Part shown: positions 14,011-58,704 of the stretch, one piece after another | Numbering within the stretch: position 1 is the first letter of the stretch | Layout of the letters: the number at the start of each line of letters is the position of its first letter | Assembly (NCBI GenBank): GCA_044892525.1 | Contig: CM097888.1 | Coordinates: 36,580,001-36,644,000 of the forward strand | Direction of reading: 5' to 3' | Length of the DNA stretch: 64,000 nt | DNA from: Schmidtea polychroa | Taxonomy: Eukaryota | The notes under the pieces: model-generated | What the model was told of the DNA's origin: nothing | What the model saw: the letters and a program-made list of their open reading frames with translations, nothing else | Databases searched by the model: none | Position numbers and translations under genes: made by a program

Positions 14011-16499
14011 CAAGGGTGGGCAAACTTTTTCTATAAAGGGCCACATAGAAAACTTGATTGTTATCGGGGGCCGCATATATATTTTGTCTACTACTTTACT
14101 TTAGTTACAATTGTTACAACTTATGAAAATATGAATTGATGAGAATAGTCATGTATTTGTCAGTTTATTTCACATTCCCACTCTATTACAAAGGCACATT
14201 ACATTTTCAAATAGGAACTAAACGAATTGCTAATTTGGGAATAAGATTTTACTATTCATAATTATTCCAACAAAAGTTTATTGTTACACGTCATAATAAT
14301 TATGAAGACAAAGAAACTTTATTTACATACAAGCCGACCACAATGTACAAATATAATTAATGAGAAGTATGTAACTGTTCACAATTTTGAATAATTTTCT
14401 TGAACTGTGGAACCAGTTTACTGGTTGTGATTCGTATAACTGCATTTAAATTGCAGTTAGTCAACATCGATCTGTTCTTAGACTTATTTATTTTCATACA
14501 AGAAAACGCTTGCTCACAAATGTATGTGGACCCAAATAGTGACAAAAGCTTGGCAGCAAAGTGTTTTAGCTGCGGAAATACTGCTGCTAACAAACAGCCA
14601 TAAGAACTGACTTGAACTTCTTCAGGTCATTTTCTGCTTGTAAGTCAAGCAGTTCTAACTGTATATCCTCTGGGGCTGAATCAGCTTCTGCACTAAATGG
14701 CGAACTGAGGATATTGAAGAGTGGTTCTAGGGTTTTGAAGTCTTGGAACCTCCTTTCAAACTCCACAACCAAGGCATCCAACTGAGCCTTGTACTTGTCA
14801 GCCATTTGACCAGAAATGGTATTCTGATTCAGCAAAGGGAAATTGCAAAACCTGTTTTCACCAGCTTGCCTAGAGAACAGGGAGAGTTTTGCCTGAAATG
14901 ATTTAACATGTACATACATTCCATGTGCAAACAAGCTATTGCCCTGAAGTTTAACATTCAGCTCATTCAACTTTTCCATAATGTCAATGGCAAACATGAA
15001 GTCTGACTTCCACTCTTCGTTAACAATGTTAGTGGCAAAGTCACAAACAACCCCCTTCATCTCCAAGAACATAACTATTTTTTCCTTGAGATCCCACACT
15101 CGCCTTAATATCTTGCCTAGGCTTAGCCAGCGGACACTGCTGTGGTAGATAACGTCAGAATGTTCAGTTTCCAAATCTTTAAGCAGTGTCTGAAACTGCC
15201 TGTGATTAAGTGCCCTGGCTCTGATGAGTTTTATCACACTGACAACTGGATCAATAACATGCTTAATATGCAATGCAGCTTTACACAGACTTTCCTGATG
15301 GATGACACAGTGGAGAGGTAAAGTGCATGGTTAGGATGTTTTTCTTTAATTTTATTATTCATCAACTTCACCAGACCAACATTTTTTCCAGTCAAAGCTC
15401 GCGCTCCATCGGTTGTTACACTTGCCATCTTGTTCCACATCAACCCAGTTCTTTCAACACAGTTCTCAACAGAGTTGAATAAATCCTGGCCTGTGGTTGT
15501 GTCTTTGAGCGGCTCAACACAAAGTAATTCTTCAGTAAGCTCGAAACGAGTGTTTATTCCCCGTATAAATACCAACATTTGGGCTGTGTCCTGTACATCG
15601 GTACTTTCGTCCAATGCAAGAGAATACCACAAAAAGTCTTTGCTTGCATCTCGAAGTTGGTGCATCAAATTGTCACTTATCTTTTCAACACGCCTGACTA
15701 CGGTTCTCCTTGATAAAGAAATGCTGTCAAATCTTGTTTTCTGTCTGGACACATAATGCTTGCTGCATCTGGCAAGCATTCCTTAATGAACTCGCCGTAA
15801 GAAAAGGGCTTGTTACGTTTTACAATCTTATGGGACAGCATCAAACTGGTCTCGGTTGCAATATCTTGTATTACAGAATGTTTGGTGAGAACAGTTTGCT
15901 GCTTCTTTAAATTATTAACCAACTCCTGGCATTTCTTTTTTCTCTCTTCGTTTGTTAAATTGCGCCCGAAATCCAAATGTCTTGTTTCGTAGTGTCTTTT
16001 CAAGTTGTACTCTTTAAAGACGCTCACACACTCACGACACAGCAAGCAGACTGATTTGCTCCCAACGCTCGTGAAGCAGTATTTAGCAGTCCATTCGACA
16101 TTAAAAGCACGACATTCGTCTTCAATCTTTCTTTTTTTAGCAACACTCATGGGTAATTCAAAGTCTATTCGCTTTAAAATTACAATTTTTACAAAGACTT
16201 TCAAAATGTAAATTGTAAATAAAATCCTCTTCTGGTTGAGCGGAAAAGCAGTTTCAATGTTAACTAGTAATGACCAGTAATAAATAATATTCTGGAGCCA
16301 CAAAATCGATTTAATATCCATAAATTCGAATCAAAGCAATAAGAAATACATTTCAAAAATATAGACAAAACTGCAAGTCTAAGCTCCAAACAAAGAAAAT
16401 TAATTTCGCATAGGATCGCCACATGTACATGCATACGGGCCGCATAATATACTCTGTCGGGCCGCATGCGGCCCGCGGGCCGTAGTTTGCCCACCCCTG
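14011..16499 (-). mobile_element. Full-length hAT DNA transposon (Charlie/Buster/SPIN-like), 2489 bp
   Basis: TIRs CAAGGGTGGGCAAACT / CAGGGGTGGGCAAACT (1 mismatch). Perfect 8-bp TSD GTATAAAT at 14003-14010 and 16500-16507. Confidence 0.96.
14357..16150 (-). pseudogene. hAT transposase (SPIN/GTF2IRD2-like) broken by three frameshifts
   Basis: MSVAKKRKIEDECRAF..CLLC..FKEYNLKRHYETRH (BED-like finger), LALDESTD, TTDGA, RWLS and FGSTYICEQAFS are spread over four ORFs, with shifts near 15735, 15325 and 14590. Confidence 0.93.
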
Positions 16500-37016: not shown

Positions 37017-38765
37017 TGGTATTTATTTCTAGATTTAATAAAATTAGCTAATTTAGCTAATTAAATAAATGAATAATAATTATTTTCAAATATTTATCAT
37101 TAATTTTATTGGTTAAATTTATTCCAATCTTAATGAAAATTTTTAAATTTTTAAAGAAATTTGAATTATTAATATCAATAAGTTTCATATAGAAATCCCA
37201 GTTATATTTTATATAATAATTACATTTATTTTTATTTGAAATTTAGATTTTCGAATTTTTAAAAAAGTATATTTTATAAATATTTTTTATTGTTTTAATT
37301 GTTTTAATTGTTTTAAATATATTTTACACTTTAAAATTTTATATTAAATATTTATTTTATGTTAACATCAAACAAACAAAGGTCATTAAAAGTTATACTA
37401 TATTTACGGTAAATATATTTTTTTGGAAAAATAAAGAACATCGAAGAAAATAAAAAAGTACCTTATAAAATCCATAAATTTATAACATTATTTTCAAAAA
37501 TAGCAGTGAAATAAAGGACTGTCCTCTTAAATGATCGACGTATGGTCACCAGTAGGTAGTTAATAGCTAGTCGCAGCAGTACCCTCACAAAGGGGTTGCT
37601 ACAGAATTTTTTTTCTCAATGGTTACTTAATTGCTGCAAAGTGCAACACTTATTTTTTCTGGTGTTTTCAATACAAAAAAAGTTCTATAGAAAAAAAGCC
37701 ATGTTTTTCTGACTATAGTGAGGGGTGTCCTTGGTTCTGGGATTTTAAATACAAATATCAGTCTACACTAAAAAACCAAGGAATCATTCGGAATCAATGA
37801 ATAATTCGGGTGGGTCTCTTTGGTATTGGGATTTTCAATACAAAAACATTGTAAATTAAGGATTAAAATGTAAATTATGGGTCTAAAAATTGAATTAAAT
37901 TAATCAATGGACTGAAATAAGTAAAGTAAATTAAATCAAAGGCCTGAAATTGAATTAATGTTCAAAATTTAAAATTAAATTAAATTTAGGTTCAAAATTT
38001 CAAAATAGAGTAAATTAAAGTAAGAATTTTAAATTTATTATCAAAAACTTTAAATCACAACCAACTTTTGAGAAATAAAAATTTTAAATGAAAATTTTAA
38101 TGAAATAATTTTTATTGACAATTTTAGATTGAAATTTGTTTTTGAAATATTTTTCAATGTTATATTTTAAAATTAAGTAATCAATGGTCTAGAATTTTAA
38201 ATAAGTAAATTAAAGTTAAAAATTTAATTTTAAAGTAATATTTTAAAATTAAAGTAAATTAATGTAATATGTAAATTAAAGTAAGAATTTTTAATTTACT
38301 ATCAAATAGTTTTAATAATATTCTGCTTTTGAGATATGAAATTTTAGGATGAAATTTTTATGAAATAATTTTTAAAATTAAATTTAAATGGAAATTTCTA
38401 TAAAACAATTTTGAAAGTCAAATTTAAATAGAAATTTTGCTAATAATAATAGTATTAATAATAATATTCAGAAAAGAATCTAACTAATAAAACAAAATTA
38501 AATAATTCAATTTATTCATTAATACTCTTATGGCTTAAAACTCATTTATAATATTTGAATGGTCATAATTGAATGCGGTGGTTTTTGCCATATCTTTACA
38601 TTACTTTATATAATTTGCAGTGAAAATAATTTGTGGTCGCAGAACCACTGTTCTATATGTTGATGGTTTCTTAGCATTTAGAATTAGATTTCCGTGGCAA
38701 AGGTTTATTAAGTATATTCCAAGCTACTTTAAGAATAAATGAATGAAGAACAAATTTATCAATTG

Positions 38766-42750: not shown

Positions 42751-44006
42751 GTATGGAAAGCCATAGCTTAGGAAATGAGGCTCAACAACAGAATAACCAA
42801 CAGCTTCGTCACAAAAAATTCTGATCTTCCTAACTTCTACCACCTAATTAAAACTCACAAAGAGGGTCCTGGTATCAAAATTAGACCTATAGTGTCCAAC
42901 AAAAATGGACCAACAACTAAAACAAGTTGGCTCCTTGCAAAGATCTTGAAACCTTTATTGGACACGATACCACACCATCTTCAAAGCAGCGACTGCCTCA
43001 TGACAAGACTAAATAATAACATGACTTGTCATAGAGAATTCCAATACCCATTTAGTCTTGATGTCGTATCACTATACACATCTATAGAACCAACAGAGGC
43101 TATTCAATGTTTAGAAAAGAAATTAAGAGAAAGCAACTTGTTAATAAAGGAAATGAATATCGAGAATATTACCAAACTACTTACTGTTATTCTCGAGAAC
43201 ACATATTTTACCTTTGAACAAAATATCTATAAACAAGTTAAAGGTCTGCCTATGGGTTATCGCATATCAGGACTGCTAGCAATCATCTTTATGGATAACC
43301 TCGAACGACAGACACTGAGGACCATACAACCCATCGGTTTCTATGCAAGATATGTAGATGATATCTTCATCACGACCAAAAACAGAAAAGAAGCGAAGGA
43401 AATATTTCATACATTCAATGCGGCTCATCAAGATATTAAGTTCGAAATCGAATATCCGGAAGAAGATGGATCCGTCAATTTATTGGATTTGAGAATCAAA
43501 ATTGAAGGAAATACTCCAACATACGGGTTCTACAGAAAACCAGCTCTCAAAGAAATATTTATGCACCAAAGATCAGCGCTTCCATACTTACAGAAAGTAC
43601 ATGTCATAAGAAACGAGAAACGAAGAATAGCCAATCGATGCATGGAGAGAAATGAAAACTTTAAAGAACAATCAAATTTCAATAAAATCCTACAGCGAAA
43701 CGGATACCAAGGTACAGGACATTGAAAGAATGAATTCTACCCCAAGAAGATCTAGGGAATTAACACAAAAGAATCAGAAATATTTCTATCTGAATATCCC
43801 ATTCATCAGTGACATAATCGACTTCAAGATCCTGAAAGAACTTAAACGTACCGGTCTTCCAATTCGGATAGCACATAAATCTTGGACATTGAGAAGGGCT
43901 CTGGCAAGCAGCATAAATAGAGATAATAATTGCACAATGAAAAACTGCCAGACACCGAAAGATATGTGCTTTAGAAAAAACATCGTCTATTGCATCACGT
44001 GCAATG
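42751..44006 (+). mobile_element. Penelope-like element, partial copy (RT 42751-43725; GIY-YIG start 43652-44006)
   Basis: RPIVS, SLDVVSLYT, GLPMG, YARYVDDIF, NLLDL. The 5' part is in a gap and the endonuclease is cut at CITCNV by an LTR-like insertion. Confidence 0.93.
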
Positions 44007-44903
44007 TGTTGGCGTATGTGGGGAGAACGGGAAGGGTTATCATAAGGCATATACTCAGCTTCATTCGGCTCTGGCCTTTCCCCAGCATACCCACAATAAC
44101 TTTACAGAATATTCCCTCACGTGAGCCCGTGGAGGTCTTACACGTTGGTGATGCTCACATGGGTTGGAGTTGATTCACAGGTGAGTCCCTGCCTTAGGAC
44201 TACTGTTAACCCCCTCTCGGTTCGGGTTCCAAGGTGCCATAGAAGGCCTTACCCACACTCTCATACATAACTCGGTCCGACCCTGGTCCAAAGGGACGAC
44301 CTTCATCCGATGACTTACATTCGATTTAGCAATCAAGCCATACAATTCGTACAACAATCTCATAACTAACTCATCAAATGCCAAGAAAATTTATATTAAT
44401 TCCAACACACATTGATTACACCAAAAAACGTATTACACCGATATCTAATAAACACAGTAAAATGCATAGATGAATTTGTCCGCAGACAAGGATCAAAGTT
44501 AAGTCCAGTAGGGCGAATTAAACTTGACGTTGACGTTATGTTGGATCATCAGAAAATTTCTCCTTCGGCTAACATTTCATCTATATCCACGGGTAACCGA
44601 CAATCTGCAATGAACTTGATACCATCGGCCGGAACTACCCGGAATATTTCTTGGTTTGGAATTGAATGGGAATTGGAGATTTCCTTGATGGTGGATTGGG
44701 CCACGGATAGCGAAGCCTCCAGCGCGGCGATGGCGTCCCTGCGGTTTTGATTTTTCTCAGCGCGCGTCGGCCGCTTACGTTTCCGATTTTGCGTCTTGGT
44801 TTCAACTGTTGGTTGTATCTGGTGAGGCTGGAGAATCGGAGCCAAGATGGGGTCCGATGGACCCTTTGTCACGGGCCTAGAACTGGAGAGAGCTGGAGCG
44901 AGG
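44007..44903 (-). mobile_element. Truncated LTR-like fragment with a small basic ORF (44549-44872)
   Basis: Begins TGTTGGCG where PLE identity stops. Layout and KRKR-helix ORF resemble the left end of 50874-57205. The right end is replaced by the cassette junction. Confidence 0.55.
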
Positions 44904-45598: not shown

Positions 45599-47632
45599 AA
45601 GATTTAAGACACGGCTAATTTTAAACTTAAAAAATTAAAAAAATAATGACAAAATGATTTAAAATTAATATTTGGGTCAAAATTAATTTTTGCAATTCAA
45701 GTCAAATTTCTTTCTGAAATACACATACTTTTTCGATTATTAAAACAATAGTTATCAAGGTCAGCTCATGGAACTGAAATAATGAAATGAAAAGAAATAA
45801 ATTTTACTCAATCCATTTTTATCACATAGTTATACAATTTTTTTATAAAAACACTTCGTGCCCGTGCTCGACCTGAACTGTCAAGACTTTCAATTCTATC
45901 CATTTCTGTATGTAACTGCACCTAATATTTCATATACCTCTAAATGCCCGTAGCAAGCGACTTTGGTGCTGCAATTTAGTAGGTGGTCGTTAGCAAGAGA
46001 CGAGTACCCTTACGAAGATTGCTAATGCTCTGATGCGTCTCTGTGTTCATAGGGTATAATGCCTCATTTCCTCTTTTGCCCTCAACGTCATTTTTTGTTT
46101 ATCCTAATTTTGTGTATTCGAATTTAACCAAAATTTCTTTTTCAAGATATTTAATAATTAAGAATACGAGATTGTTTACCTAAAAATATTTTTCAATTTC
46201 AACTGTGTAGAAAGTAGAACAAATCCAATATCATTCCGCGAAATGTTTCAAGTGATACAAATAACATTTACAAAAATTGCAAATCAAGAATTAACCTGAA
46301 GATTTCAAAACACAAAAGTATTTACATAGAAAAAAATACTCATTTTATATCAAGACTCTAAATTGTCAATCTACTCTTTGTGAATTGTGTAAATTGCCTG
46401 ATACTCCAGTAATTAGATTTTGCATTAAAATGTTAAAAATTATTGGAGACTTCAATATTTTTTCACATATTTTTATTTACCAACTGAATTTTACGTACCG
46501 CATTGGGATGCTCTCTGGTGCTTTTTCTATTTGATCTGTTTGCTATGTCCATTTGTTTATATTACAATATTTCATTTATTCCAGGCCAAGAAATTTAATT
46601 CTGAGTTTTTTTGCTAATCATCTAAAAATGTGATCAAAAATTAAGTTTCAAATGTTAATATCAGATTAAAAATTAGATATCATTTCTTAGGTAAATCATA
46701 CTCATAAAAAAAAGAAATAGAATTCGTGAAAAACAAAATAAAGTTAATTGCAGCTCTGAAATTCGCTGAATTCCTCATTCAAAATAATTCAAAATTCAAT
46801 AAGAAAATATTTATGAAAAAAATCCTTATCATTGAATCTTTGGTATCACGAAAAATCAAAAACTTTGTGTAAAAGAAAATGATATTTTTAATTTGAGCTT
46901 TTTCTAAATTGTAAACAAATCTGGGTGTAGTTTATTTATCAATGATTTTAAAAGTCATTATATTGTTTAGTTTAATTTTAATAATAAATATATTACATTT
47001 TTTAGGAAAGATTGTTTCTATTGGAAAGTTTGAACTAGATGTTCTTCAATATTTAGTTATCATTTTAGGCAAGAAGAAAATGTATGTCAGGCTCAATATG
47101 TTCAACCCTGCAATAGTGAAACATTAATAAACTCACAACACAAATTTCACATTTCTCTTTAAATATTGCACCTTCTAATAACCTATTAATTTGAAATTAT
47201 GTAATTTTATTTCTTTTGTCAATTGCTGCTTGTCTACATTTCATATGATTTATCTTGATTTTTACACCGGAAATTCAATTAATTTTAAATAATTTGCAAA
47301 GTAGTCGTTATATCATTATGATCAATCTNNNNNNNNNNNNNNNNNNNNNNNNNNNNNNNNNNNNNNNNNNNNNNNNNNNNNNNNNNNNNNNNNNNNNNNN
47401 NNNNNNNNNNNNNNNNNNNNNNNNNNNNNNNNNNNNNNNNNNNNNNNNNNNNNNNNNNNNNNNNNNNNNNNNNNNNNNNNNNNNNNNNNNNNNNNNNNNN
47501 NNNNNNNNNNNNNNNNNNNNNNNNNNNNNNNNNNNNNNNNNNNNNNNNNNNNNNNNNNNTTGGTAGCAGCATTTATTATTTAAAACAATAAAATGATAAT
47601 TTAAGCCTTTTGCTGCAAATAATGTATTTAAT

Positions 47633-47671
47633 GTAAGAATTTTCGACTATACGATAGTCCTTGTCAATCTC
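47633..47671 (-). ncRNA. Candidate variant hammerhead (U3-A8) in the PLE pLTR
   Basis: GAGA-TTGACAA-G-GACTAT-CGT-ATAGTC-GAAA-ATTC^TTAC. Stem I is weak in this copy. Confidence 0.5.
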
Positions 47672-48046
47672 CTGGAATTTAGCAATGTTCTTCCCCAAAA
47701 TACCTTTCAATCCTTCTTTTATTTCCTTTCTCTTAATTCTCATTGGTTGTAAATATAATGAATTGTTTTACTAAAAACTTTTAAAATTTTTACATTTAAA
47801 ATTTCCAAATGACACAAACTAAAAATTTTTAAATTTTTTACAGCTTCTATAATTAGCTTCTAGAAGCCTAATAAAATATTTGAAAATATTTTAAATAAAG
47901 CTTCCAATAACTACTTATATATGCTATTTAAATATTTCAATAAATGTGTCAATTTTGATTTTCAAACCCTATTTTTAAAATTTTTTTCTATATTATTCTA
48001 ATTAATACTTTTTAATTTCTTTATATATTGTCAGTTATTCTCAAAG

Positions 48047-48679
48047 TCAATGACAACAGATCAAATTCATGATTTCATTGATTTCTTCTTTAATGTTGAT
48101 CTTTGGCTGTCTGTTTATGATGAGAATTGCTTCTTTGAATCTGATATTTTTCTTTTGGATGTTTCCATTAGCTATGATTTCTATTGAAATATTTTTTCTT
48201 TCCTCTGTTGGCTGACACTGCCGGAGATGTCTTCCCAACGAGGATGTTCCACCAGGATCTAGATGTTCTTTAACTCTTTGGTGCAATGTCCTGAGGGTAC
48301 TTCCAATGTAGATTTCATTGCATACATTGCACGTGATGCAATAGACGATGTTTTTTCTAAAGCACATATCTTTCGGTGTCTGACAGTTTTTCATTGTGCA
48401 ATTGTTTTCTCTATTTATGTTGCCTGCCAGAGCCCTTCTCAATGTCCAAGATTTATGTGCTATCCGAATTGGAAGACCGGTACGTTTAAGTTCTTTCAGG
48501 ATCTTGAAGTCGATTATGTCACTGATGAATGGGATATTCAGATAGAAATATTTCTGATTCTTTTGTGTTAATTTCCTAGATCTTCTTGGGGTAGAATTCA
48601 TTCTTTCAATGTCCTGTACCTTGGTATCCGTTTCGGTGTAGGATTTTATTGAAATTTGATTGTTCTTTAAAGTTTTCAT
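48047..48679 (-). CDS. PLE GIY-YIG endonuclease ORF, 210 aa, in a separate overlapping frame
   Basis: YLNIPF, VYCITCNVCNEIYIGST.RTLHQRVKEH, RFKEAILI..QPKIN. Confidence 0.9.
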   Translation of the reverse strand: MKTLKNNQISIKSYTETDTKVQDIERMNSTPRRSRKLTQKNQKYFYLNIPFISDIIDFKILKELKRTGLPIRIAHKSWTLRRALAGNINRENNCTMKNCQTPKDMCFRKNIVYCITCNVCNEIYIGSTLRTLHQRVKEHLDPGGTSSLGRHLRQCQPTEERKNISIEIIANGNIQKKNIRFKEAILIINRQPKINIKEEINEIMNLICCH

Positions 48680-50618
48680 TTCTCTCCGTGCATCGATTGG
48701 CTATTCTTCGTTTCTCGTTTCTTATGACATGTACTTTCTGTAAGTATGGAAGCGCTGATCTTTGGTGCATAAATATTTCTTTGCGAGCTGGTTTTCTGTA
48801 GAACCCGTATGTTGGAATATTTTCTTCTATTTTGATTCTAAAATCCAATAAATTGAGGGATCCATCTTCTTCCGGATATTCGATTTCGAATTTAATATCT
48901 TGATGAGCCGCATTGAATGTATGAAATATTTTCTCCGCTTCTTTTCTGTTTTTGTTCGTGATGAAGATATCATCTACATGTCTTGCATAGAAACCGATGG
49001 GTTGTATGGTCCTCAGTGTCTGTCGTTCGAGGTTATCCATAAAGATGATTGCTAGCAGTCCTGATATGCTAGAACCCATAGGCAGACCTTTAACTTGTTT
49101 ATAGATATTTTGTTCAAAGGTAAAATAGGTGTTCTCGAGGATAACAGTAAGTAGTTTGGTGATATTCTCGATATTCATTTCCTTTATTAACAAGTTGCTT
49201 TCTCTTAATTTCTTATCTAAACATTGAATAGCCTCTGTTGGTTCTATAGATGTGTATAGTGATACGACATCAAGACTAAATGGGTATTGGAATTCTCTAT
49301 GACAAGTCATGTTATTATTTAGTCTTGTCATGAGGCAGTCGCTGCTTTGAAGATGGTGTGGTATCGTGTCCAATAAAGGTTTCAAGATCTTTGCAAGGAG
49401 CCAACTTGTTTTAGTTGTTGGTCCATTTTTGTTGGACACTATAGGTCTAATTTTGATACCAGGACCCTCTTTGTGAGTTTTAATTAGGTGGTAGAAGTTA
49501 GGAAGATCAGAATTTTTTGTGACGAAGCTGTTGGTTATTCTGTTGTTTATCCTCATTTCCAAAGCTATGGCTTCCCATACTTTGTTGATCTTCATTTCGA
49601 TGGTGTTTGGTGACATGCGGCTGACTTTCTTGTATGTTTCGATGTTGCCGAGGTGTTCGTAACCAGCTTCACAGTAACGATTCTTCTCTATAATGCAAAA
49701 TTCTCTCCCCTTGTCACTTGGTAAGTAAACGTACGGTTTCTTTTTAAGGGATTTTAATATTGCCTGTTCGTCTTTCGTTAGGTTTGAGAGATATGGTTTT
49801 CTTCTTTTCTTCTCAACTATCTCCATGATTTTGTGACAGACCTTTGAGAGTGTTGAATCTAATTCTGCATCAGGATTTGGTTGATAGAGTTTATCTGTGT
49901 TTATGTATACTGGGAGCTGGTTTTCGCTATTTTCATTTTCATGCGGTATTGTATTGTTCCATTTGATCTGGTACGCAATACGACAAAGAGCTGTTTTGAA
50001 ATTGAGGATGGCTGCTTCATCTATTTCTCTGTTTATACTGAACTTTGGTCCTAGTGAAAGTAATCCTTTTTCTCCTTTGGATAGACAATTTGTGAGGTCG
50101 GTTACTAGTTCTTTGTTCACTGTAATGCTTTCGTTTCCGTCCAGTGTTTCATTGTTCGTAACAAGACCTGCTTTGAGCTCCTTTTTTCTCAAAATGTGTT
50201 TGATTCTTTTGTCAAATCGCAAGGAATAATGTGCTTCTGCTGTCATGAAGGATTGTCTTTGTACCTCGTAGATCAATTCTTTTGGGTGGTTATTCAAATA
50301 CGTTTTCAAAATGTTTTCTTGATTCTTTTGTTCCCGATGAGTTTCTCCGTACATACTTCTAATTAAATTTGTTAAAATATAATCTTTGATGTTTTTATTT
50401 CTCTTGATGTTTTGATCTTTGTTGAGAATCTGAGGTAAGTGGATGTTATCAATTGTTGTTGGATAGATCTTTATTTCCTTACATCGGCGAAGGAAATTTA
50501 TTTGGCAGTATAATTTCGCAATTTTCTCGTTGAATCTAGCTAAATTCCGTATTTCCAAGTATTTTACCCGGCTCAGGCCTTTTGAAAGTATAAAATGATG
50601 ATTGCTTGGTAGCAGCAT
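48606..50618 (-). CDS. PLE reverse transcriptase ORF, 670 aa
   Basis: PSDKG, FYHLIKTHK, IRPIVS, SLDVVSLYTSI, GLPMGSSIS, YARHVDDIF (Y>H relative to the other copy). Confidence 0.93.
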   Translation of the reverse strand: MLLPSNHHFILSKGLSRVKYLEIRNLARFNEKIAKLYCQINFLRRCKEIKIYPTTIDNIHLPQILNKDQNIKRNKNIKDYILTNLIRSMYGETHREQKNQENILKTYLNNHPKELIYEVQRQSFMTAEAHYSLRFDKRIKHILRKKELKAGLVTNNETLDGNESITVNKELVTDLTNCLSKGEKGLLSLGPKFSINREIDEAAILNFKTALCRIAYQIKWNNTIPHENENSENQLPVYINTDKLYQPNPDAELDSTLSKVCHKIMEIVEKKRRKPYLSNLTKDEQAILKSLKKKPYVYLPSDKGREFCIIEKNRYCEAGYEHLGNIETYKKVSRMSPNTIEMKINKVWEAIALEMRINNRITNSFVTKNSDLPNFYHLIKTHKEGPGIKIRPIVSNKNGPTTKTSWLLAKILKPLLDTIPHHLQSSDCLMTRLNNNMTCHREFQYPFSLDVVSLYTSIEPTEAIQCLDKKLRESNLLIKEMNIENITKLLTVILENTYFTFEQNIYKQVKGLPMGSSISGLLAIIFMDNLERQTLRTIQPIGFYARHVDDIFITNKNRKEAEKIFHTFNAAHQDIKFEIEYPEEDGSLNLLDFRIKIEENIPTYGFYRKPARKEIFMHQRSALPYLQKVHVIRNEKRRIANRCTERNENFKEQSNFNKILHRNGYQGTGH

Positions 50619-50678
50619 TTATTATTTAAAACAATAAAATGATAATTTAAGCCTTTTGCTGCAAATAATGTATTTAAT

Positions 50679-50717
50679 GTAAGAATTTTCGACTATACGA
50701 TAGTCCTTGTCAATCTC
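50679..50717 (-). ncRNA. Candidate variant hammerhead (U3-A8) in the PLE pLTR
   Basis: Identical motif in the upstream pLTR, about 60 nt before the RT ATG. Confidence 0.5.
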
Positions 50718-51247
50718 CTGGAATTTAGCAATGTTCTTCCCCAAAATACCTTTCAATCTTTCTTTTATTTCCTTTCTCTTAATTCTTTCTCTTAATATCC
50801 CATTCATCAGTGACATACTCGACTTCAAGATCCTGAAAGAACTTAAACGTACCGGTCTTCCAATTCGGATAGCTGGTGGGTTACTGATAGTTAATTAATT
50901 ACGCTCTTATGCTGTTACCAGCGTAACCCAGAATACAACATTATTTTCCTCTCGGTACCCGTTGAGCAATCAACGTTGGTACTGTACCAAGGGGTTGAGT
51001 ACTCGCAAAAAGTGAGCGCGTCAAGCACTGTAATTGTCGAGCACTCTATGGGTTCACGGACGCCGATAGAAGGCACGTGTCCGATTTGTTTCGGTCCCTC
51101 ATCGAGATTGTTTTCCCAAACGCTTTTCTGCCAACCATCTTATTTTAGACAACCGCAAAGTTCAATCACATACTCATTAGACAACAAGAATCATTTATTT
51201 ATTCACTACTATATTACAAAGATTGTTTACGCACTCTCGAACGTCTC

Positions 51248-51805
51248 TCAGGATCGTGGATTGGCTTCAGTCTCTTTCAATTTCTCCTGTTCGGCTAGCC
51301 AGGCCCTTTTCAATTTGTCGCGGGTATTCCGCCCTAGCCGTTTGCGTTTCGGCTTGCTTGCCTGGGCTGGTGGGTATATCTGGGCCAACTCCACGGAAAG
51401 TGGACGAATCTGCTCGCAAAGGGTGTCCTGGACGAATCTTTCGTTCAATTTACTCTCGAGCGAGCGCACTTGTAGCTTCAGCGCTCGGATCTCGAGTTGA
51501 TCTTGCTCCGCCTGGGTCTGGAGTTGTGAGATGCGCGTGGTTTGTTTCTTCATCTCAGCCGGACTGAACCACGTACTTTCGAGTTCTCGGCATTTGATCT
51601 TGAACTTCTCGACCCGACTTCGGAGGTCTTCGGCTTGTTGCTGGGCCTGTTCACGGTCCTTTCGTAGGTTTTCGAGGAATTTGTACACTGAATGGAAACA
51701 ATAATAAAATTCCCTCGCTCGCTGCCATGTGCGTAAAGGTGATTCACTTAGTGGTGTAAAATTTATAGCTGAAAGGTGAGTGAAGTCCCCCGATCCTGGA
51801 GACAC
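51248..51805 (-). CDS. Coiled-coil ORF with C-terminal basic NLS-like motif inside the LTR-like element
   Basis: Heptad-like LENLRKDREQAQQQAEDLRSRVEKF...LEIRALKLQVRSLESKLNE, then KPKRKRLGR. No ATG at the ORF start; possible splice acceptor at 51688-51689. Confidence 0.65.
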   Translation of the reverse strand: MSPGSGDFTHLSAINFTPLSESPLRTWQRAREFYYCFHSVYKFLENLRKDREQAQQQAEDLRSRVEKFKIKCRELESTWFSPAEMKKQTTRISQLQTQAEQDQLEIRALKLQVRSLESKLNERFVQDTLCEQIRPLSVELAQIYPPAQASKPKRKRLGRNTRDKLKRAWLAEQEKLKETEANPRS

Positions 51806-51997
51806 CCCATAAAATACAATCGCAGAAAAATTAATTTGTTATATGAGGAAGACACATGAACAAATATAATATTAATAATTTTAATAAAGTAACATCCTAC
51901 AAATTGTCGTATCAATTATTAAAGGAGTCAAACACAATTACAACAACATTATGTCCGATTGATCATATAGTTCATTCAAGTCATCACTGTCGTGGGA

Positions 51998-52366
51998 TTA
52001 GGCAGGGTTCTTCCGGGGTCTTCCCCGTTTCCTCGGAGGTGCCTCGGCCTCTTCTAGTTCCTCCAGGGACACCCCTCCTCTTTCGGCTCTGATCTGTAGA
52101 TCGATCTTCTTGAGCCGGGCCTGGGAAGCTTCCACATCGCAGACCGCCTGATCTCGGGCCTCTTGCAAACGGTCATTCTCCGGTTCCACCTTCACCCATG
52201 TCTGGGCATCGGGCTCTGGGCCGGTCCGGATAATCCGATTGGAACAGTCCAGGTCCCGCCCCTGACACCATCGATGAATATGATGCCAGATGTACCGCGT
52301 GCGAAGGCGGGTGATTGTCCATTGCTCGTCCTCTTCGTTGCTGTGGTTATCGTTTGGTGGTGCCAT
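51998..52366 (-). CDS. 122-aa AT-hook protein inside the LTR-like element
   Basis: ATG at 52366, GC-rich coding-like composition, C-terminal PRKRGRPRK AT-hook after a short coiled coil. Confidence 0.7.
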   Translation of the reverse strand: MAPPNDNHSNEEDEQWTITRLRTRYIWHHIHRWCQGRDLDCSNRIIRTGPEPDAQTWVKVEPENDRLQEARDQAVCDVEASQARLKKIDLQIRAERGGVSLEELEEAEAPPRKRGRPRKNPA

Positions 52367-52487
52367 GCCTGGAATGTATACGTTAATACCCGCTTAACTC
52401 ACGTCACTTATCAATGGTCGTCATAATAAAATACATCGAATTAACTCACATATCAATGACTAAGTTTACTACGATTGTTATAACTAC

Positions 52488-52794
52488 TTTTATCAAAGAA
52501 AAATAAGTTTTGTTTATAGGTTTTACCAATTTAATTTTTAACTACTTAAAATTAAATAACTTTTACCAAAAAAAATAAAGTTTGTGTATAGGTTTTACCA
52601 ATTTAATTTTTAACTACTTAAATTTAAATAACTTTTATCAAAAAAAATAAAGTTTGTGTATAGGTTTTACCAATTTAATTTTTAACTACTTAAATTTAAA
52701 TAACTTTTATCAAAAAAAATAAAGTTTGTGTATAGGTTTTACCAATTTAATTTTTAACTACTTAAAATTAAATAACTTTTATCAAAAAAAAATA
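52488..52794. repeat. 72-73 bp tandem repeat, four units plus a partial
   Basis: Unit starts at 52488, 52561, 52633, 52705 and 52777. Confidence 0.93.
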
Positions 52795-53320
52795 ACACTT
52801 ACAATTATTATCATCACCCTGATTTAAGGCCTTTTGTTTTATCACGGTAATCGTTGTTAAGGTTACGCAACAACTCCCACATTTCTTAATTTTAGTCAGC
52901 ACGGATATAATAAAGGGAAGGAATTCAGGTATCCAATATTCATATCTTAAGATTTTTCATCGCAACTTAGTGATATCAGTAGCCGACCCCAAATCTCGAT
53001 CAGTTACTATTGACTGATAATATGCTATGGTCCCTCGCATGGACGAAGAGAGCTTGGCGATGCCAAGGAGAAAAGTTGGCGATTGCCTCGATAATTGAGT
53101 CGATATTAACTTATAAAGAACTCAGTGATCCCGATTAGTAACCTTTGTTTGGAATTTTTTGTTTCGCTTGGATGCTAATATAACGTGAATCTTCGATTTT
53201 GGACAAAGTAAAACTTCCTAGTAAGGAAAAAACTTATTTTAACGAAGATGCTTCGATTTCTTTTAATTTTTGAAATTTCGGGAACTCCCCAGATCGGGAT
53301 CGGATCGATGAATAAGGTTA

Positions 53321-53610
53321 GTATGGATAATGATGATGATAACAATAGTAATTATAGTAAGAGTAATAGCAATGTCAATTATGATGATAGTAATAAATAA
53401 TAATAATGTTTATCCTGACAATACCAATGGTAATAGTAATCGCACTAGAATAACGGTAATCATGATAATATTAGTAATGATGATAATAACTTTGATGATA
53501 ATAATAGTATTAATAACCATAGTAGGATAGTTAATCATGATAATATTAGTCATGATGATAATAACTTTGATGGCAATAATAGCATTAATAATAATAGTAG
53601 GATAGTTTCC
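53321..53610. repeat. ATA/ATG-rich low-complexity tract with a roughly 75-bp tandem duplication
   Basis: ATCATGATAATATTAGT...AGTAGGATAGTT occurs twice (about 53460-53608). Confidence 0.8.
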
Positions 53611-56600
53611 CATTTTTCCATTCGAGATTCCACTTTCCTAATTGTAGAAATTCTAAGCTTATGATTTAGGGAGTTACCTTTACAATCTACAGATTTCTGT
53701 CTAGAATTCAGCGTTTATGTTTTACCATTTATGAACTTCTACCTTACAGTGTCTAATTAAATATATCTCGTATATAGTTTAATACTTTATGATTTGCTAT
53801 TCGGTATTTTGTTATTTTATAATCGCTGCTTCAAGTGTTGTAATTTATAAATTTGTGTTAGCTACATTTGTAATTTTCGGATTCCTAATTCATAGCGTTT
53901 TATGAATTTATAATTTATCAGTTCTCGTTTCATGAGTTAATTTTGTCGATTTTAGAAATTTATCCTCTACGATCTACAAATTTCCTTTCACTATGATAAT
54001 TGTGCACTCTTGGCTCTGCAATTGGTATGGTAAATGCGGGACTATCGTCTAGATACTAGTCCATGTTGATTGGACGTCTAACTGCAGTGCGAGGTCAGAG
54101 TTACCAGTCGGTGTGCTTGCAACTTCTATGCCCCGCAGAGTGAGAGCTTTTTGGTTCACCACTCATACGTTCTAGGTAACCTACAATCCTGGTAAGATAA
54201 CTGGAATAATTAATCGATTTCTCGTTCCTCTAATTCTAGAATGCGGAATGTGCAACTACGTCACTGGTGACTCACAAATTTGTAGATTATATCAATTACC
54301 TGATTGGTCTACCGATTGGCTAGAATGACTGCATGTTACTAAAAATAGATTTCATGCGTGTTGTATCGATCGTTTGATTCCTCCGTAAGTCTAATTTTGT
54401 ATAATTCTTAAGCCATAATTTATGATGATTAAACAGGTTCGTCGTAATGCTGTCGGAAGCCTCTTTGCGGATAATTTTAATTCTGAAGATTTTGGACTAT
54501 CGGAACTATTGAGTTCATAATCAGGCGGTACCCGATATACCGTTTGCCCTGCCAACGGCTTTGTCGAATACTCCATGGATTTATCAAACCCACTCGCTTC
54601 AAGTTATTCGTTGGATTTCGAAAACGATCTCACCGATACAATTGGACGTAAAACAGGATGACATCGCAATCGCTCAACTCCAATCTCAGATATCCATATT
54701 GAACGTTGCATGTGATTCCAATGACAATTATGATTTCCCATAAATTTTCTTATGTAATAAAGTATTTGTATGGTAAACTGTTTTTGTTTTTATTCAAGCT
54801 TAGCTGCACAAAATTATTCGAGTTTACTTGGTAGTGTGACCTACACTTTGGCTTTTGGGTATCTTTATTAATCGTTTTGCACCAGGATTTTTCATAAGTG
54901 GGACGGAATTTCCGTTTATTCTAGAAGCTGGACAAAATTAAGATTTATAGTTCGGAGGTCTTTAGAGGACTTAGAGAGCAAACAAAACTTAGATTATCAT
55001 CGGAAATTTTTAATCATTATTCTAATCGAGAGTCAAATAAAATCAGGTGTCTGGGTTATACGTTTCTAAAGCACAAGCATCAATCATAGACTCAGAGTTT
55101 ATACTTCGGAAATTCCAGAAAATATAACCTAAATATCTCGAGATTATGAACTCAGTTACCCTATCAAGCTAACATTATGCTTTAAGTATTCAGTCAAATT
55201 ATAGTTTATAATCAGTTACCTATTTAAGGAAATGCATAATACTACGCTATAATTTAGGTATGCATAAATTATCGATGGGGGAATAGGAGTTAGCATTATA
55301 CCTTTCAACACTCAAAAATTATATTTTATATGAAAACCCTAATTTCTAATTTAAATAGCTAAATATGTAAATAATTTATAAAATTCTATTATATTTTTCT
55401 GCCTTATATTTTAAAACTAGATTCCGCAATCTATTAAGTTACACTTTATCAATTGGTACTATTACATAATATACTCTATATTTTCAACGGGCATGCAAAG
55501 CCATATTTCTACTTCAACATTAATAAAATATAATATAACCCCAAATTATATCCCAATATCTTCACACATTATATTTTAAATAGGCATAAGGTTATATTTC
55601 ATAGTAAAAATTTATGAATTATTTCTGAATGCAACCTAAAAGTATATAATTAATAATTATAAATTATACTTCAAGCAAAGTTATTTCATAATTTCTAAAC
55701 ATTTAACATTTTTAGATTACATTTTCGGACTCATTATTAAGACATATTTCATAGATCAAGGGTAATACGTATTTATAGGTTGTAGCTTCGACTACAAATT
55801 TGAGCCGTAGATTTAAAGTTAATTAAGTACTTTCATTTGATTATTTACGTTTGTCGAACTTCTTTACGAGGATTTCTACATTTACTCTAAAAATTAAAGA
55901 AATTTTAAAATTATATATCTCAATGCAGTTCGACAAACGTATAGGCATAATCGAGTTTTCCCATGATGATCAACCGACTACATGTGTTCAATTTGGGTCT
56001 GAGTTCTACTCAATTATGACCTTAGTGTAACCCTATTGTCTACGATTTTTAATGTTGAGATTAAATATGTTTGCTTGTACTCGGGAAGAATGCTTGCTTA
56101 CACGGCCCCACTGTGACCGCTACGACAAGCCCTACTGTAATGTTGAGTCGAAACATCACTGTCGACCGATAAATAAATATATGGAGCCATAGCGGAGGGG
56201 TTTTATCGACACAACTCCATGGTAGAACCATGAAGTGGCCGACCTCCGATGACCGAACAAAAAAAAATATATACAGGATATTGCATGTCTGCATGTTTCA
56301 AAAAAATTTAACATCAAATGCAGGACTGAATAGAGACGCACTGAGACGCCGCTGATCAGTCGTATTTTTTAAAAAAAATTTTAATAAAAATAATTTGGTC
56401 TTATGGATATTAAAATTAATTTACATTAAAATGATTACATTAACCATAGGTGACAAAAAAAAAAAAATTTTTCTTACTATTAGTTTTCGGAAAAATCTTA
56501 ACAAAATATTGGCATAAACAAAAGTGATTTATTGTGACTGAAACGTGTCAGTATATATACCTATTTTGTACACGTGTATGTATTGATGCATTAAAACAAA

Positions 56601-57765
56601 CTCGAATTCTTTTTATTCCAGAATTTTCTATTTCACGATTTTGATATTTTTAATGGCAATTTTTGTGCCATAATTTTTGTTTTCATTTTTAAAATTTTAT
56701 TTTTTAATTATTTTTCGTTAATTTGACGTCCATGATGAATTTGGAACGGTTCCAGAACATTCTATTTTACTTTTAATTTAATTTTTATTCCAACTGGTGT
56801 TTTATGAATTTCTTTTTAAGATTTATTATTTTTAATACTAATTTATTTATTTTCTCTACTTTTTATGGCTTTTGTGATGGTCATCGCCATTTTAATGGAA
56901 TGTTCTGGGTTTTTCTGGAATTTTTTACTGTTTTTACCATCTTTTAAGTTATTCGAGTTTGCTTTTTGTAATTCTATGTTTATTTGGTTATTTTTGAGTT
57001 AGATTTTGCATAACTTCTTGCTTTTGTATAATTTTATTTAATTTGTGTGTTTATTATTCTTGTTGTTTTCTCTGTTTAATTACCATTGTTTATTTGGTGT
57101 AGGTTTTAATATTTAATTATACTTGGTGCTTTTTTACTTGCTGTGTACCTACACATTTCAGTCACAATGTGTATTTTGGGTCTAGAATTCAGTTCTAGCC
57201 CAACATAGCACATAAATCTTGGACATTGAGAAGGGCTCTGGCAGGCAACATAAATAGAGAAAACAATTGCACAATGAAAAACTGCCAGACACCGAAAGAT
57301 ATGTGCTTTAGAAAAAACATCGTCTATTGCATCACGTGCAATGTATGCAATGAAATCTACATTGGAAGTACCCTCAGGACATTGCACCAAAGAGTTAAAG
57401 AACTGACAATATATAAAGAAATTAAAAAGTATTAATTAGAATAATATAGAAAAAAATTTTAAAAATAGGGTTTGAAAATCAAAATTGACACATTTATTAA
57501 AATATTTAAATAGCATATATAAGTAGTTATTGGAAGCTTTATTTAAAATATTTTCAAATATTTTATTAGGCTTCTAGAAGCTAATTATAGAAGCTGTAAA
57601 AAATTTAAAAATTTTTAGTTTGTGTCATTTTGAAATTTTAAATGTAAAAATTTTAAAAGTTTTTAGTAAAACAATTCATTATATTTACAACCAATGAGAA
57701 TTAAGAGAAAGGAAATAAAAGAAGGATTGAAAGGTATTTTGGGGAAGAACATTGCTAAATTCCAG

Positions 57766-57804
57766 GAGATTGACAAGGACTATCGTATAGTCGAAAATTC
57801 TTTC
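57766..57804 (+). ncRNA. Candidate variant hammerhead (U3-A8) in the inverted PLE pLTR
   Basis: GAGA-TTGACAA-G-GACTAT-CGT-ATAGTC-GAAA-ATTC^TTTC. The 4-bp stem I GAGA/TTTC includes one G-U pair. Confidence 0.55.
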
Positions 57805-58363
57805 ATTAAATACATTATTTGCAGCAAAAGGCTTAAANNNNNNNNNNNNNNNNNNNNNNNNNNNNNNNNNNNNNNNNNNNNNNNNNNNNNNNNNNNNNNN
57901 NNNNNNNNNNNNNNNNNNNNNNNNNNNNNNNNNNNNNNNNNNNNNNNNNNNNNNNNNNNNNNNNNNNNNNNNNNNNNNNNNNNNNNNNNNNNNNNNNNNN
58001 NNNNTGTTAATATTTTTTTATATAAATAAATCTCATAAAATTGAACTGATTATTTAAAAAATATTTCATTTAATTCATTATTGTCTAAAAATTGACTCAA
58101 AACAATCTGGAGTTTAGAATTTATTATTTTGAGAATTAAATTAAATTATACATCAAATTGACAATTTCTTTATTTAATGAATCATACAGAATTTATTTTT
58201 ATTTACTAATATATATGTTCGTTATTTTGAACAAATATTCATGATAAATTTTATTTGAGAAGATTCATAATAATGTAAATGCCATGAAAATGAATCACAA
58301 AAAACTTGTATTCACATATCTTTCATCTGTATAAAAGGACGATTTATAAAATTAATTTTAAAC

Positions 58364-58704
58364 ATGAAAATCTTAGTTCTCTTTAGTTTGACTTTGGTCT
58401 TTGTTTGTTGGGCGCTCCCAGCAGAGGACTACTACAATGATATGGAAAATGAACCGGTTAATGAGAAATCTTTTGAAATTGGTAAAATGATTCTTGATTA
58501 TTATTTTTTATCAACTTCTTTATAGATAATAATGCTAATGAAAACCAGTTAGACAAGAAGTTATTTTCCCGTTGCAAACCAAAAATCAAAGATTGTCCAC
58601 AGCATTTAAAATACCGATGTAGAATGTGTATATACCACCAAAAACGAAAACCAATTCTTTGCCATTCAAATGGAACAATAACTTGTGTTCAAAAAAATTT
58701 TTAA
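58364..58704 (+). CDS. Second intact copy of the secreted 6-Cys cationic peptide precursor (exons 58364-58481, 58526-58704)
   Basis: Same 44-nt intron. Mature peptide identical. I10T and V48L plus three synonymous changes. Confidence 0.85.

Follow-up and report, generated by a model that had tools for sequence, protein, structure and literature searches.

The window, the whole 64,000-nt stretch of Schmidtea polychroa DNA analysed here, contains a 6.3-kb insertion that lies inside another mobile element and is real. Our leading explanation, to which we give a probability of roughly 0.55, is that a giant Gypsy-type retrotransposon left this insertion behind as a solo LTR, which carries two probable genes under a predicted heat-shock promoter. 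New here is a second, diverged element end (44007-44903), which cuts another Penelope copy and has an open reading frame (ORF) pointing at that end.

Insertion borders and termini

The insertion, its target and its ends are defined by the following features.

50874..57205, minus strand as putative sense: the entire insertion of 6,332 bp, a probable solo LTR, from empty-site copies and end motifs
50870..50873, plus strand: left target-site duplication TAGC, present once in each of two uninterrupted Penelope copies
57206..57209, plus strand: right target-site duplication TAGC, from the sequence and empty-site copies
48047..50618, minus strand: host Penelope-like element with RT and GIY-YIG
50790-50873 plus 57206-57837, inverted relative to 48047..50618: partial Penelope copy, target of the insertion
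50874..50880, minus strand: short inverted repeat at the left end (putative U5 end), 6/7 to YNYAACA
57199..57205, minus strand: short inverted repeat at the right end (putative U3 start), 7/7 to TGTTRNR

The TG...CA ends given in the initial annotation are present (TG at 50874, CA at 57205), as is its 4-bp duplication restoring the interrupted Penelope sequence. TAGC flanks the insertion on both sides, and one TAGC occupies the insertion point in the uninterrupted Penelope copies at 48265-48542 (reversed) and 43789-44007. In a chance control, 203 of 1,770,023 TG..CA pairs spaced 0.3-10 kb apart in the window had both a 4-bp duplication and an inverted match of at least 8/10. A terminal signature this common by chance still carries weight in the present case, since the borders are set independently by the empty-site copies.

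The 10-bp imperfect terminal inverted repeat (TIR) annotated earlier matches at 8/10 positions and does not extend further. The Gypsy/retroviral integrase end consensus is TGTTRNR...YNYAACA (PMC3601003); the chance of both ends agreeing with it as they do is 7.6e-5, with one end deviating at base 3. Two absences in the same annotation were also confirmed. There is no direct or inverted repeat from end to end, local alignments being at the null level, and a six-frame Pfam scan of 50874-56600 with stops read as X found no gag, pol, integrase or transposase family. Within the last 0.6 kb of the element no complete open frame reaches 80 codons. Neither a paired copy nor a PBS, PPT or gag-pol was seen, no copy of the element was found in metagenome and viral collections, and the right-end 23-mer had 0 matches to metagenome contigs. 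A tRNA search found none, and Rfam gave 3 weak matches, all under the gathering score.

The window also contains a sulfite oxidase (P0001), whose nearest relative is 96% identical over one exon. This relative and Paragonimus split from the 19 other rows with support 93/85, both on long branches, which links the host only loosely to flatworms. Of 20 sequencing runs listed, 14 share part of the stretch; seven of them, from one organism and three studies, contain 0.41-0.54 of its words, and runs with small shares are left aside. No RNA runs sharing the stretch are among the matches listed.

Predicted transcription signals and reading frames

Inside the borders, the element contains two ORFs on the minus strand, candidate splice and poly(A) sites, promoter-like motifs and repeats.

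51998..52366, minus strand: ORF A, 122 aa, with two predicted helices, an acidic stretch and a C-terminal AT-hook, RKRGRPRK
51248..51687, minus strand: ORF B, predicted long coiled coil and basic patch KPKRKR; its own ATG gives 101 aa, a splice at 51688 would give 146 aa
52369..52390, minus strand: 3' splice-site candidate 2 bases before the ORF A start codon, by motif
51688..51710, minus strand: pyrimidine-rich 3' splice-site candidate at the start of the coiled-coil part of ORF B, by motif
51194..51203, minus strand: likely poly(A) signal, two overlapping AATAAA followed by a G/T-rich stretch, 45 nt past the ORF B stop
56477..56559, minus strand: predicted LTR core, with TATA at 56559, AATAAA at 56533, initiator-like TCACTTT at 56527-56521 and splice donor at 56477
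56616..56628, unstranded: canonical heat-shock element, upstream of the minus-strand TATA by 57 nt
56750..56762, unstranded: second canonical heat-shock element
53272..53284, unstranded: canonical heat-shock element without an adjoining TATA
57146..57168, unstranded: arm of a 23-nt inverted repeat (87%), its partner at 56531-56553 overlapping the predicted core
52486..52791, unstranded: 72-bp tandem repeat, 4.2 copies, 96% matches
53320..53610, plus strand: low-complexity stretch of A, T and G that includes a 75-bp duplication; one of its frames is Asn/Asp-rich but interrupted

The tandem repeats reported in the initial annotation were found at 52486-52791 (4.2 copies of 72 bp) and 53457-53607 (2 copies of 75 bp). 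Its CCAAT-rich block near 54060-54330 is not enriched and was rejected as a promoter signal: it has 3 sites, and in 363 of 500 cases local shuffling of the element yields a 271-nt block with at least 3. On the minus strand, 56762-56477 holds a stronger cluster of motifs. Under the pattern used for heat-induced flatworm LTRs (PMC12801592), there are three canonical heat-shock elements in the 6.3 kb and one in the other 56.8 kb of the window, a concentration reached in 0 of 500 shuffles. The heat-shock element at 56616..56628 and the TATA at 56559 form the only such pair in the window. Heat-shock element, TATA, AATAAA, initiator and donor follow in order on the minus strand, which is the strand of both ORFs. 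The TATA-AATAAA-initiator series occurred in 9 of 3000 shuffles of the block beside the heat-shock element, for a pattern chosen post hoc and by eye; on its own it is found at 6 other places in the window. Together with the G/T-rich stretch the core motifs stand in a fitting minus-strand order, though they are common in AT-rich DNA.

There are six strong minus-strand donors between 56540 and 51690, and only that at 56477 follows A, the base that would complete the ORF B start. Further AATAAA motifs lie on the same strand of the element; downstream of the pair at 51194..51203 the T+G fraction is 0.71, the highest of the 9 AATAAA sites examined.

A second, diverged element end

Elsewhere in the window is a second end with which part of the 6.3-kb element can be aligned.

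44007..44903, minus strand: second, diverged end of the same kind, starting TGTTGG, with its own ORF at 44920-44549 on the minus strand
50874..51255, minus strand: non-coding terminal block conserved with the second end at 44007-44440, 235/355 aligned columns identical

The second end, which interrupts another Penelope copy and is truncated by a local duplication, is identical to the 6.3-kb element in 66% of aligned columns. The local score of the terminal block is 109 against a shuffle mean of 49, and 0 of 300 shuffles reached it. Folding of this block gave z from -2.0 to +0.9, with no clear structure. An apparent similarity between the second end and the element's right end was lost under composition-preserving shuffles (95/300).

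The ORF at 44920-44549 has the same place and direction as in the 6.3-kb element and points at the conserved terminus. Its protein has no significant similarity to that of ORF A or ORF B. Its DNA matches ORF B weakly (3/300 shuffles), and identity by codon position (33/47, 27/45, 25/45) shows no clear third-position excess.

The second end bears on the question of whether the whole 6.3 kb is LTR. It is possible, though we consider it unlikely, that the insertion is a composite solo LTR, in which a shorter LTR was enlarged in this copy by nested insertions or fused to an internal piece so that the ORFs lie outside the LTR proper. The element is indeed a patchwork of GC-rich and AT-rich blocks, and the 638-bp segment between the arms of the 23-nt inverted repeat could be a nested MITE bearing two heat-shock elements. 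In Retand, moreover, the extra ORFs and tandem repeats adjoin the LTR and are not inside it (PMC11963269). However, the second end likewise has an ORF beside the conserved terminus, the flanks of the 638-bp segment match over at most 2 bp and its arm occurs nowhere else in the window, and keeping internal sequence without any terminal redundancy needs two deletions.

Coding potential of ORF A and ORF B

Both ORFs are probably coding, as judged from their sequence, with no homolog in any search. The AT-hook ORF of the initial annotation is intact, running uninterrupted from ATG to stop (52366-51998, minus strand). The coiled-coil ORF was likewise called intact; its frame is open for 196 codons (51838-51248), but the first in-frame ATG (51553) gives only 101 aa, and the full ORF B would need a splice for its start. 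Shuffling produced two minus-strand frames of at least 131 codons in 5 of 1000 cases and the AT-hook core in 3 of 2000. Both ORFs have low GC at codon position 2 and sharp GC steps at their edges. In a codon model ORF A was the best of six frames (20/1000 shuffles), with a small lead over the opposite strand (1.5 vs 1.2), and ORF B was second of six (86/1000 shuffles).

It is also conceivable, with a slightly lower probability than that of a composite, that the giant solo LTR encodes no protein and that its ORFs arose by chance within GC-rich regulatory sequence or are dead remnants. Stops are rare in GC-rich DNA, so that a single frame of 131 codons turns up in 119 of 1000 shuffles, the opposite strand also has a 201-codon frame, the frame signal of ORF B is weak and homologs were absent in all searches. 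Against this, a perfect AT-hook stands right before the ORF A stop, acceptor-like sites lie at both frame starts, a poly(A) signal follows ORF B, the ORF edges coincide with GC steps, and the helices predicted for ORF B are long (mean pLDDT 85.6). Outside ORF B, the plus-strand 201-codon frame (50895-51500) is not coding-like (773/1000 shuffles as good). A plus-strand spliced RING-like gene at 54088-54743 is unproven: it has no Pfam or PDB support and several in-frame stops, and is not the best frame.

For ORF A, no homolog was found near its length (13 candidates), at all lengths among 1.84 billion representatives, in the Atlas by language-model features, in metagenome and viral contigs or among PDB sequences (best E 0.83), and Foldseek against viral and PDB structures returned 0 at E 0.001. 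Its AT-hook falls under the Pfam cut-off (E 0.16, 12.3 vs 17.4 bits). For ORF B there was none among proteins near its length (76 candidates) and none in viral contigs or PDB sequences; its generic coiled-coil matches in the Atlas (0.92-0.93, 117-130 shared features) were judged to be chance. An exact look-up of 10 window proteins found 0. The ORFs gave no match to host genes or ubiquitin, of the kind that a BEL/Pao solo LTR with captured host genes would show. The BEL/Pao duplication is usually 5 bp. The description of the ORFs as chromatin-binding genes rests on one AT-hook motif and basic patches.

A probable gene-carrying solo LTR

The element is best read as a solo LTR because long inverted repeats, direct repeats from end to end and matches to gag, pol or transposase are all lacking. 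The initial annotation, which proposed a solo LTR of a giant Gypsy element, is supported in part: the integrase-type 7-bp ends, the 4-bp duplication, the lack of a long TIR, the second related end and the Pol II promoter and poly(A) motifs speak for it, and the CCAAT block drops out as a promoter signal.

The two long repeats of a giant element would have recombined and left this LTR. Its sense strand would be the minus strand, with an A-rich U3 from 57205 to about 56526 containing two heat-shock elements and the TATA. Transcription may start near 56525, directly past an AATAAA, which would make for a very short R; only as part of a 3' LTR would this AATAAA end genomic RNA. A giant U5 or leader would take up the other 5.6 kb. 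A U5 of this length is far beyond what is known of animal LTRs, which counts against the reading. The donor about 48 nt past the start could join the acceptor before ORF A or that of ORF B, the latter splice creating an in-frame ATG. Termination of such spliced RNA at the AATAAA at 51203 would allow an LTR on its own to make complete mRNAs. The predicted products are small nuclear proteins, one an AT-hook plus helices and the other a long coiled coil plus a basic patch, likely acting on the element's own A/T-rich DNA or RNA. A bolder version is doubtful: giant LTRs of this family could each work as a self-contained unit of two spliced genes inducible by heat shock, so that any solo LTR in the genome could still make both proteins, and these would act in trans, under stress, on host chromatin or on the element family.

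Solo-LTR formation normally strips retrotransposon genes and is a main way in which genomes disarm such elements. If regulatory genes lie in an LTR with a stress promoter and a poly(A) site, recombination would leave them working, in many copies. If true, this would be a route by which dead elements continue to affect the host or their live relatives. LTRs that bear genes are known in principle, as in the case of MMTV sag; the MMTV LTR is much shorter than the 6.3-kb element. LTR-borne genes in planarian genomes would be worth attention because the planarian Burro1 element is reported to support stem cells (cited in PMC13465017).

Comparison with known systems

Ginger1 and Ginger2 share with the element TG...CA ends, a 4-bp duplication and a similar size (2.6-7 kb), and no paired LTR copy was seen, but it is improbable, and the least probable of the alternatives, that the insertion is a non-autonomous DNA transposon with cargo genes, never an LTR, moved by an integrase-like transposase of a Ginger-like or undescribed kind, since Ginger elements have TIRs of about 40-270 bp (8/10 bp here), prefer CCGG/CCGT (Ginger1) or RTATAY (Ginger2) targets (TAGC here) and encode a transposase absent from our six-frame scan, the last being compatible with a non-autonomous copy (PMC2836005), and since the AG-type termini and 6-bp duplication of Maverick/Polinton and its derivatives are lacking.

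Among LTR elements, the planarian Gypsy-like Burro/GYPSM1 are similarly very large and have accessory ORFs; the Burro internal region reaches 25 kb, for an overall length above 30 kb, which implies multi-kb LTRs (PMC6431247). Their accessory domains are in the polyprotein or an upstream accessory ORF, and the text available from that source mentions no genes in the LTRs. Among the literature covered, which does not include Grohme 2018, Lee 2026, Repbase or the PMC6431247 supplements, any of which may describe such genes, nothing places protein-coding genes within the LTRs of Burro or of other animal Gypsy elements. The plant Ogre/Tat lineage has LTRs of 1.9-6.5 kb and extra ORFs of unknown function, which lie in the internal region (PMC6431247).

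The antisense ORFs of Retand encode probable DNA-binding proteins beside tandem-repeat arrays and are proposed to regulate the element; they lie between pol and the 3' LTR (PMC11963269) and would therefore be lost in a solo LTR. LTRs of Macrostomum lignano and of ONSEN have 1-4 canonical heat-shock elements upstream of the start, shown to be necessary for heat induction, although two families bearing such elements are not heat-induced; LTR-internal genes are unmentioned in the portion of that paper at hand (PMC12801592). MMTV sag is likewise a protein gene within an LTR, and MMTV solo LTRs occur in mouse genomes, but MMTV is a vertebrate retrovirus with one gene in U3, whereas the element described here has two ORFs predicted to lie downstream of the start (PMC12548423).

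Borders and target of the insertion

The features discussed here are the following:

50874–57205, inferred sense minus: main element, a 6,332-bp insertion
52366–51998, minus: ORF A, 122 aa, with a C-terminal acidic stretch and RKRGRPRK
ending at 51248, minus: ORF B, a coiled-coil frame
44007–44903: second end, a diverged related terminus in another Penelope copy
44920–44549, minus: second-end ORF, which points at that end and carries a KRKR patch

The main element starts with TG, ends with CA, is flanked on both sides by TAGC, and has inserted into a partial, inverted Penelope-like copy (RT, E 4.9e-12; GIY-YIG, E 6e-6, Pfam). Two other copies of the same Penelope in the window read through the insertion site with a single TAGC, so the borders are independent of the end motifs. 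These empty sites matter because 203 of the 1,770,023 TG..CA pairs in the window have, by chance, both a 4-bp duplication and inverted ends matching at 8/10 positions. The initial annotation was correct in describing TG...CA ends, a 4-bp duplication restoring Penelope and a 10-bp imperfect terminal inverted repeat (8/10 bp, without further extension). It also held that the ends are not repeated internally and that gag and pol are absent; no direct or inverted repeat between the ends rose above shuffle level, and a six-frame Pfam scan of 50874–56600 returned no gag, pol, integrase or transposase. Identity of the Penelope flanks to the intact copy is 97.6% and 99.5%, which suggests a young target and a still more recent insertion.

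In both Penelope copies, 48047–50618 and 42772–44173, RT and GIY-YIG are read from separate frames with a 95-nt overlap. Penelope-like elements with a GIY-YIG endonuclease are described as having a single ORF in the available text of PMC6431247; the split could be due to programmed frameshifting or to a defect that both copies share. Within 47560–57837, the 3′ end of the main Penelope recurs as a 181-bp direct repeat (50606–50786 versus 47560–47740), upstream of which lies the inverted copy of the Penelope 3′ part that the main element entered.

Classification of the element

Animal Gypsy and retroviral LTR ends share the integrase consensus TGTTRNR...YNYAACA (PMC3601003, in part), which the two ends of the main element match at 7/7 and 6/7 positions (chance 7.6e-5 from window base frequencies). 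Ginger transposons likewise have TG...CA ends and a 4-bp duplication but, as excerpted from PMC2836005, differ in their terminal inverted repeats of about 40–270 bp and in their targets, and membership was rejected on both counts. Maverick was rejected on its ends and its 6-bp duplication (PMC6839031, partial text). With both sets of features failing, a solo LTR, as proposed initially, stands as the simplest reading, at a probability of about 0.85 with composite and non-coding versions counted in. The full model, a gene-carrying giant solo LTR with the predicted promoter and splicing, has slightly better than even odds. No copy of the main element was found in the public metagenome and viral contig collections searched.

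Coding capacity

The main element had been credited with intact AT-hook and coiled-coil ORFs. ORF A is indeed open for 122 aa, but its AT-hook falls below the Pfam cut-off (E 0.16); the core motif arose in 3/2000 shuffles. The open frame of ORF B spans 196 codons but yields just 101 aa from its first ATG, and its coiled-coil part begins at an acceptor-like site, 51688. In local shuffles two such frames occurred in 5/1000 and one in 119/1000. GC content is 0.53–0.59 in the ORFs versus 0.32 in the spacer, with codon position 2 low in GC in both. The six frames were ranked with a small codon model that had been trained on 7.3 kb of ORFs from the window and that put two of three controls first and the third second. 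ORF A led narrowly (20/1000 shuffles) and ORF B came second (86/1000). Single-sequence structure prediction gave two long helices for ORF A (pLDDT 68.9) and three for ORF B (pLDDT 85.6). Searches of protein collections (for ORF B, among sequences of similar length), viral contigs and PDB sequences returned no homologs of either, and metagenome contigs and Foldseek (viral and PDB) gave no match for ORF A. Both ORFs are probably real genes.

Elsewhere in the main element, the plus strand of 54088–54803 has GT-AG stretches, 48 and 52 nt long, that alternate with GC-richer blocks, one reading C-x2-C ... H-x2-C-C, followed by AATAAA at 54756. The frame holds several in-frame stops, no database support was found, and it is possibly a decayed third gene. 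A low-complexity region at 53248–53660, Asn/Asp-rich on the plus strand, has its frame broken near 53395–53450. A 23-nt inverted repeat (87%) joins 56531–56553, over the predicted start site, to 57146–57168, an arm 37 nt from the end, and could mark a nested MITE or form a stem in RNA. A hairpin at 55846–55941 (20-nt arms, 90% complementary) has a weak, below-threshold Rfam match. The suggested CCAAT-rich block is not borne out as an enrichment, being matched in 363/500 shuffles.

Predicted promoter and transcripts

With the heat-shock element (HSE) pattern of a Macrostomum LTR study (PMC12801592, partial text), three canonical HSEs were found in the main element (53272, 56616 and 56750) and one in the other 56,797 window bases. 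Three were reached in 0/500 shuffles, for a motif spotted by eye beforehand. In Macrostomum, HSEs were needed for heat induction of LTRs, and two HSE-bearing families were not induced (same excerpt). Downstream of the 56616 and 56750 HSEs on the minus strand lie TATA (56559), AATAAA (56533), an initiator-like TCACTTT (56527) and a splice donor motif, TA|GTAAGA (56477). The 56616 HSE and TATA 56559 form the sole HSE-TATA pair in the window; the TATA-AATAAA-initiator series occurred in 9/3000 shuffles of the HSE-adjoining block and at 6 other window sites. Among the 9 AATAAA sites examined, the one at 51203, 45 nt past ORF B, is followed by the most G/T-rich sequence.

Unspliced RNA would carry 4,159 nt and 69 ATGs ahead of ORF A. 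Among six strong minus-strand donors, only 56477 is preceded by A, and its join to 51688 creates an in-frame ATG and a predicted 146-aa ORF B. This fit is one coincidence, of modest odds, and gives a sharp prediction.

A second related end

The Penelope copy at 42751–44006 is interrupted by sequence starting TGTTGG, which over its first 430 nt shows homology to the main element's left end (235/355 aligned columns; local score 109 versus a shuffle mean of 49, 0/300 shuffles). The second-end ORF resembles ORF B weakly at the DNA level (3/300 shuffles; 137/206 aligned columns in phase), with no clear third-position excess and no significant protein similarity. Two diverged families thus share a layout of end, conserved 400 nt and convergent ORF, in which the ORFs themselves are only possibly homologous. 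A local duplication truncates this copy at 44903, and no internal region was found in 44007–44903. The insertions at 50873 and 44006 lie 134 bp apart in the GIY-YIG region of the same Penelope family, in the same orientation, and a target preference is possible (n=2).

Other genes and repeats in the window

A minus-strand sulfite oxidase gene (24329–10894) has introns of 42–52 nt, and its matched exons are separated by about 12 kb. Its nearest relative is the sequence P0001 and its next match Paragonimus; in the tree, these two split from 19 other rows with 93/85 support and long branches. A flatworm source for the window is plausible. The gap between the exons contains transposase frames (14587–16330), presumably hAT-like, with a weak DUF4371 match only in Pfam, and partial copies of the gene's 5′ end lie at 33169, 39050 and 45598. 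Two long single-frame RING-finger ORFs (29681–31042 and 35442–37022) lie in a 6-kb tandem duplication, the latter with an expanded 12-bp repeat of about 23 copies. A broken piggyBac-type transposase occupies 61463–62481 (DDE_Tnp_1_7, E 4e-26). A short frame at 58274–58525, with a signal-peptide-like start, an acidic tail and no Pfam match, lies in a segment repeated at 27890–29218 and partly at 34111–34956.

Proposed mechanism

A full element would have integrated, and LTR-LTR recombination would then have left one LTR. Its U3, of about 680 nt, would hold the heat-shock promoter, and the AATAAA just ahead of the start would end genomic RNA in the 3′ LTR only, an arrangement found in short-R retroelements. 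Splicing would yield transcripts for A or B that terminate near 51180 inside the LTR; unspliced read-through from the 5′ LTR would provide genomic RNA. Both products would be nuclear proteins, and A would bind A/T-rich DNA, for which the 72-bp repeat of the element is one candidate. Other layouts are possible: R could be long and end near 51180, or transcription could start near 51200, which would put both ORFs within U3; either keeps the ORFs in sense. Heat-induced, trans-acting genes in the LTR, the furthest extension of the solo LTR reading, seem unlikely.

Comparison with known systems

Burro sizes imply multi-kb LTRs, and the available text of PMC6431247 assigns its accessory domains either to the polyprotein or to an ORF upstream, whereas here the ORFs lie inside the putative LTR; assignment to Burro is tentative, at a little under even odds. 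The accessible portions of PMC11410931, PMC8532177, PMC13238120 and PMC13465017 add nothing on LTR structure. Solo LTRs, multi-kb LTRs (Ogre, PMC6431247), an LTR-encoded gene (MMTV sag, PMC12548423), extra DNA-binding ORFs beside LTRs (Retand, PMC11963269) and heat-shock LTRs (PMC12801592) are already known, as excerpted from these papers. The literature searched, with the primary Burro papers and Repbase outside it, contained no animal LTR uniting a gene, HSEs and multi-kb length.
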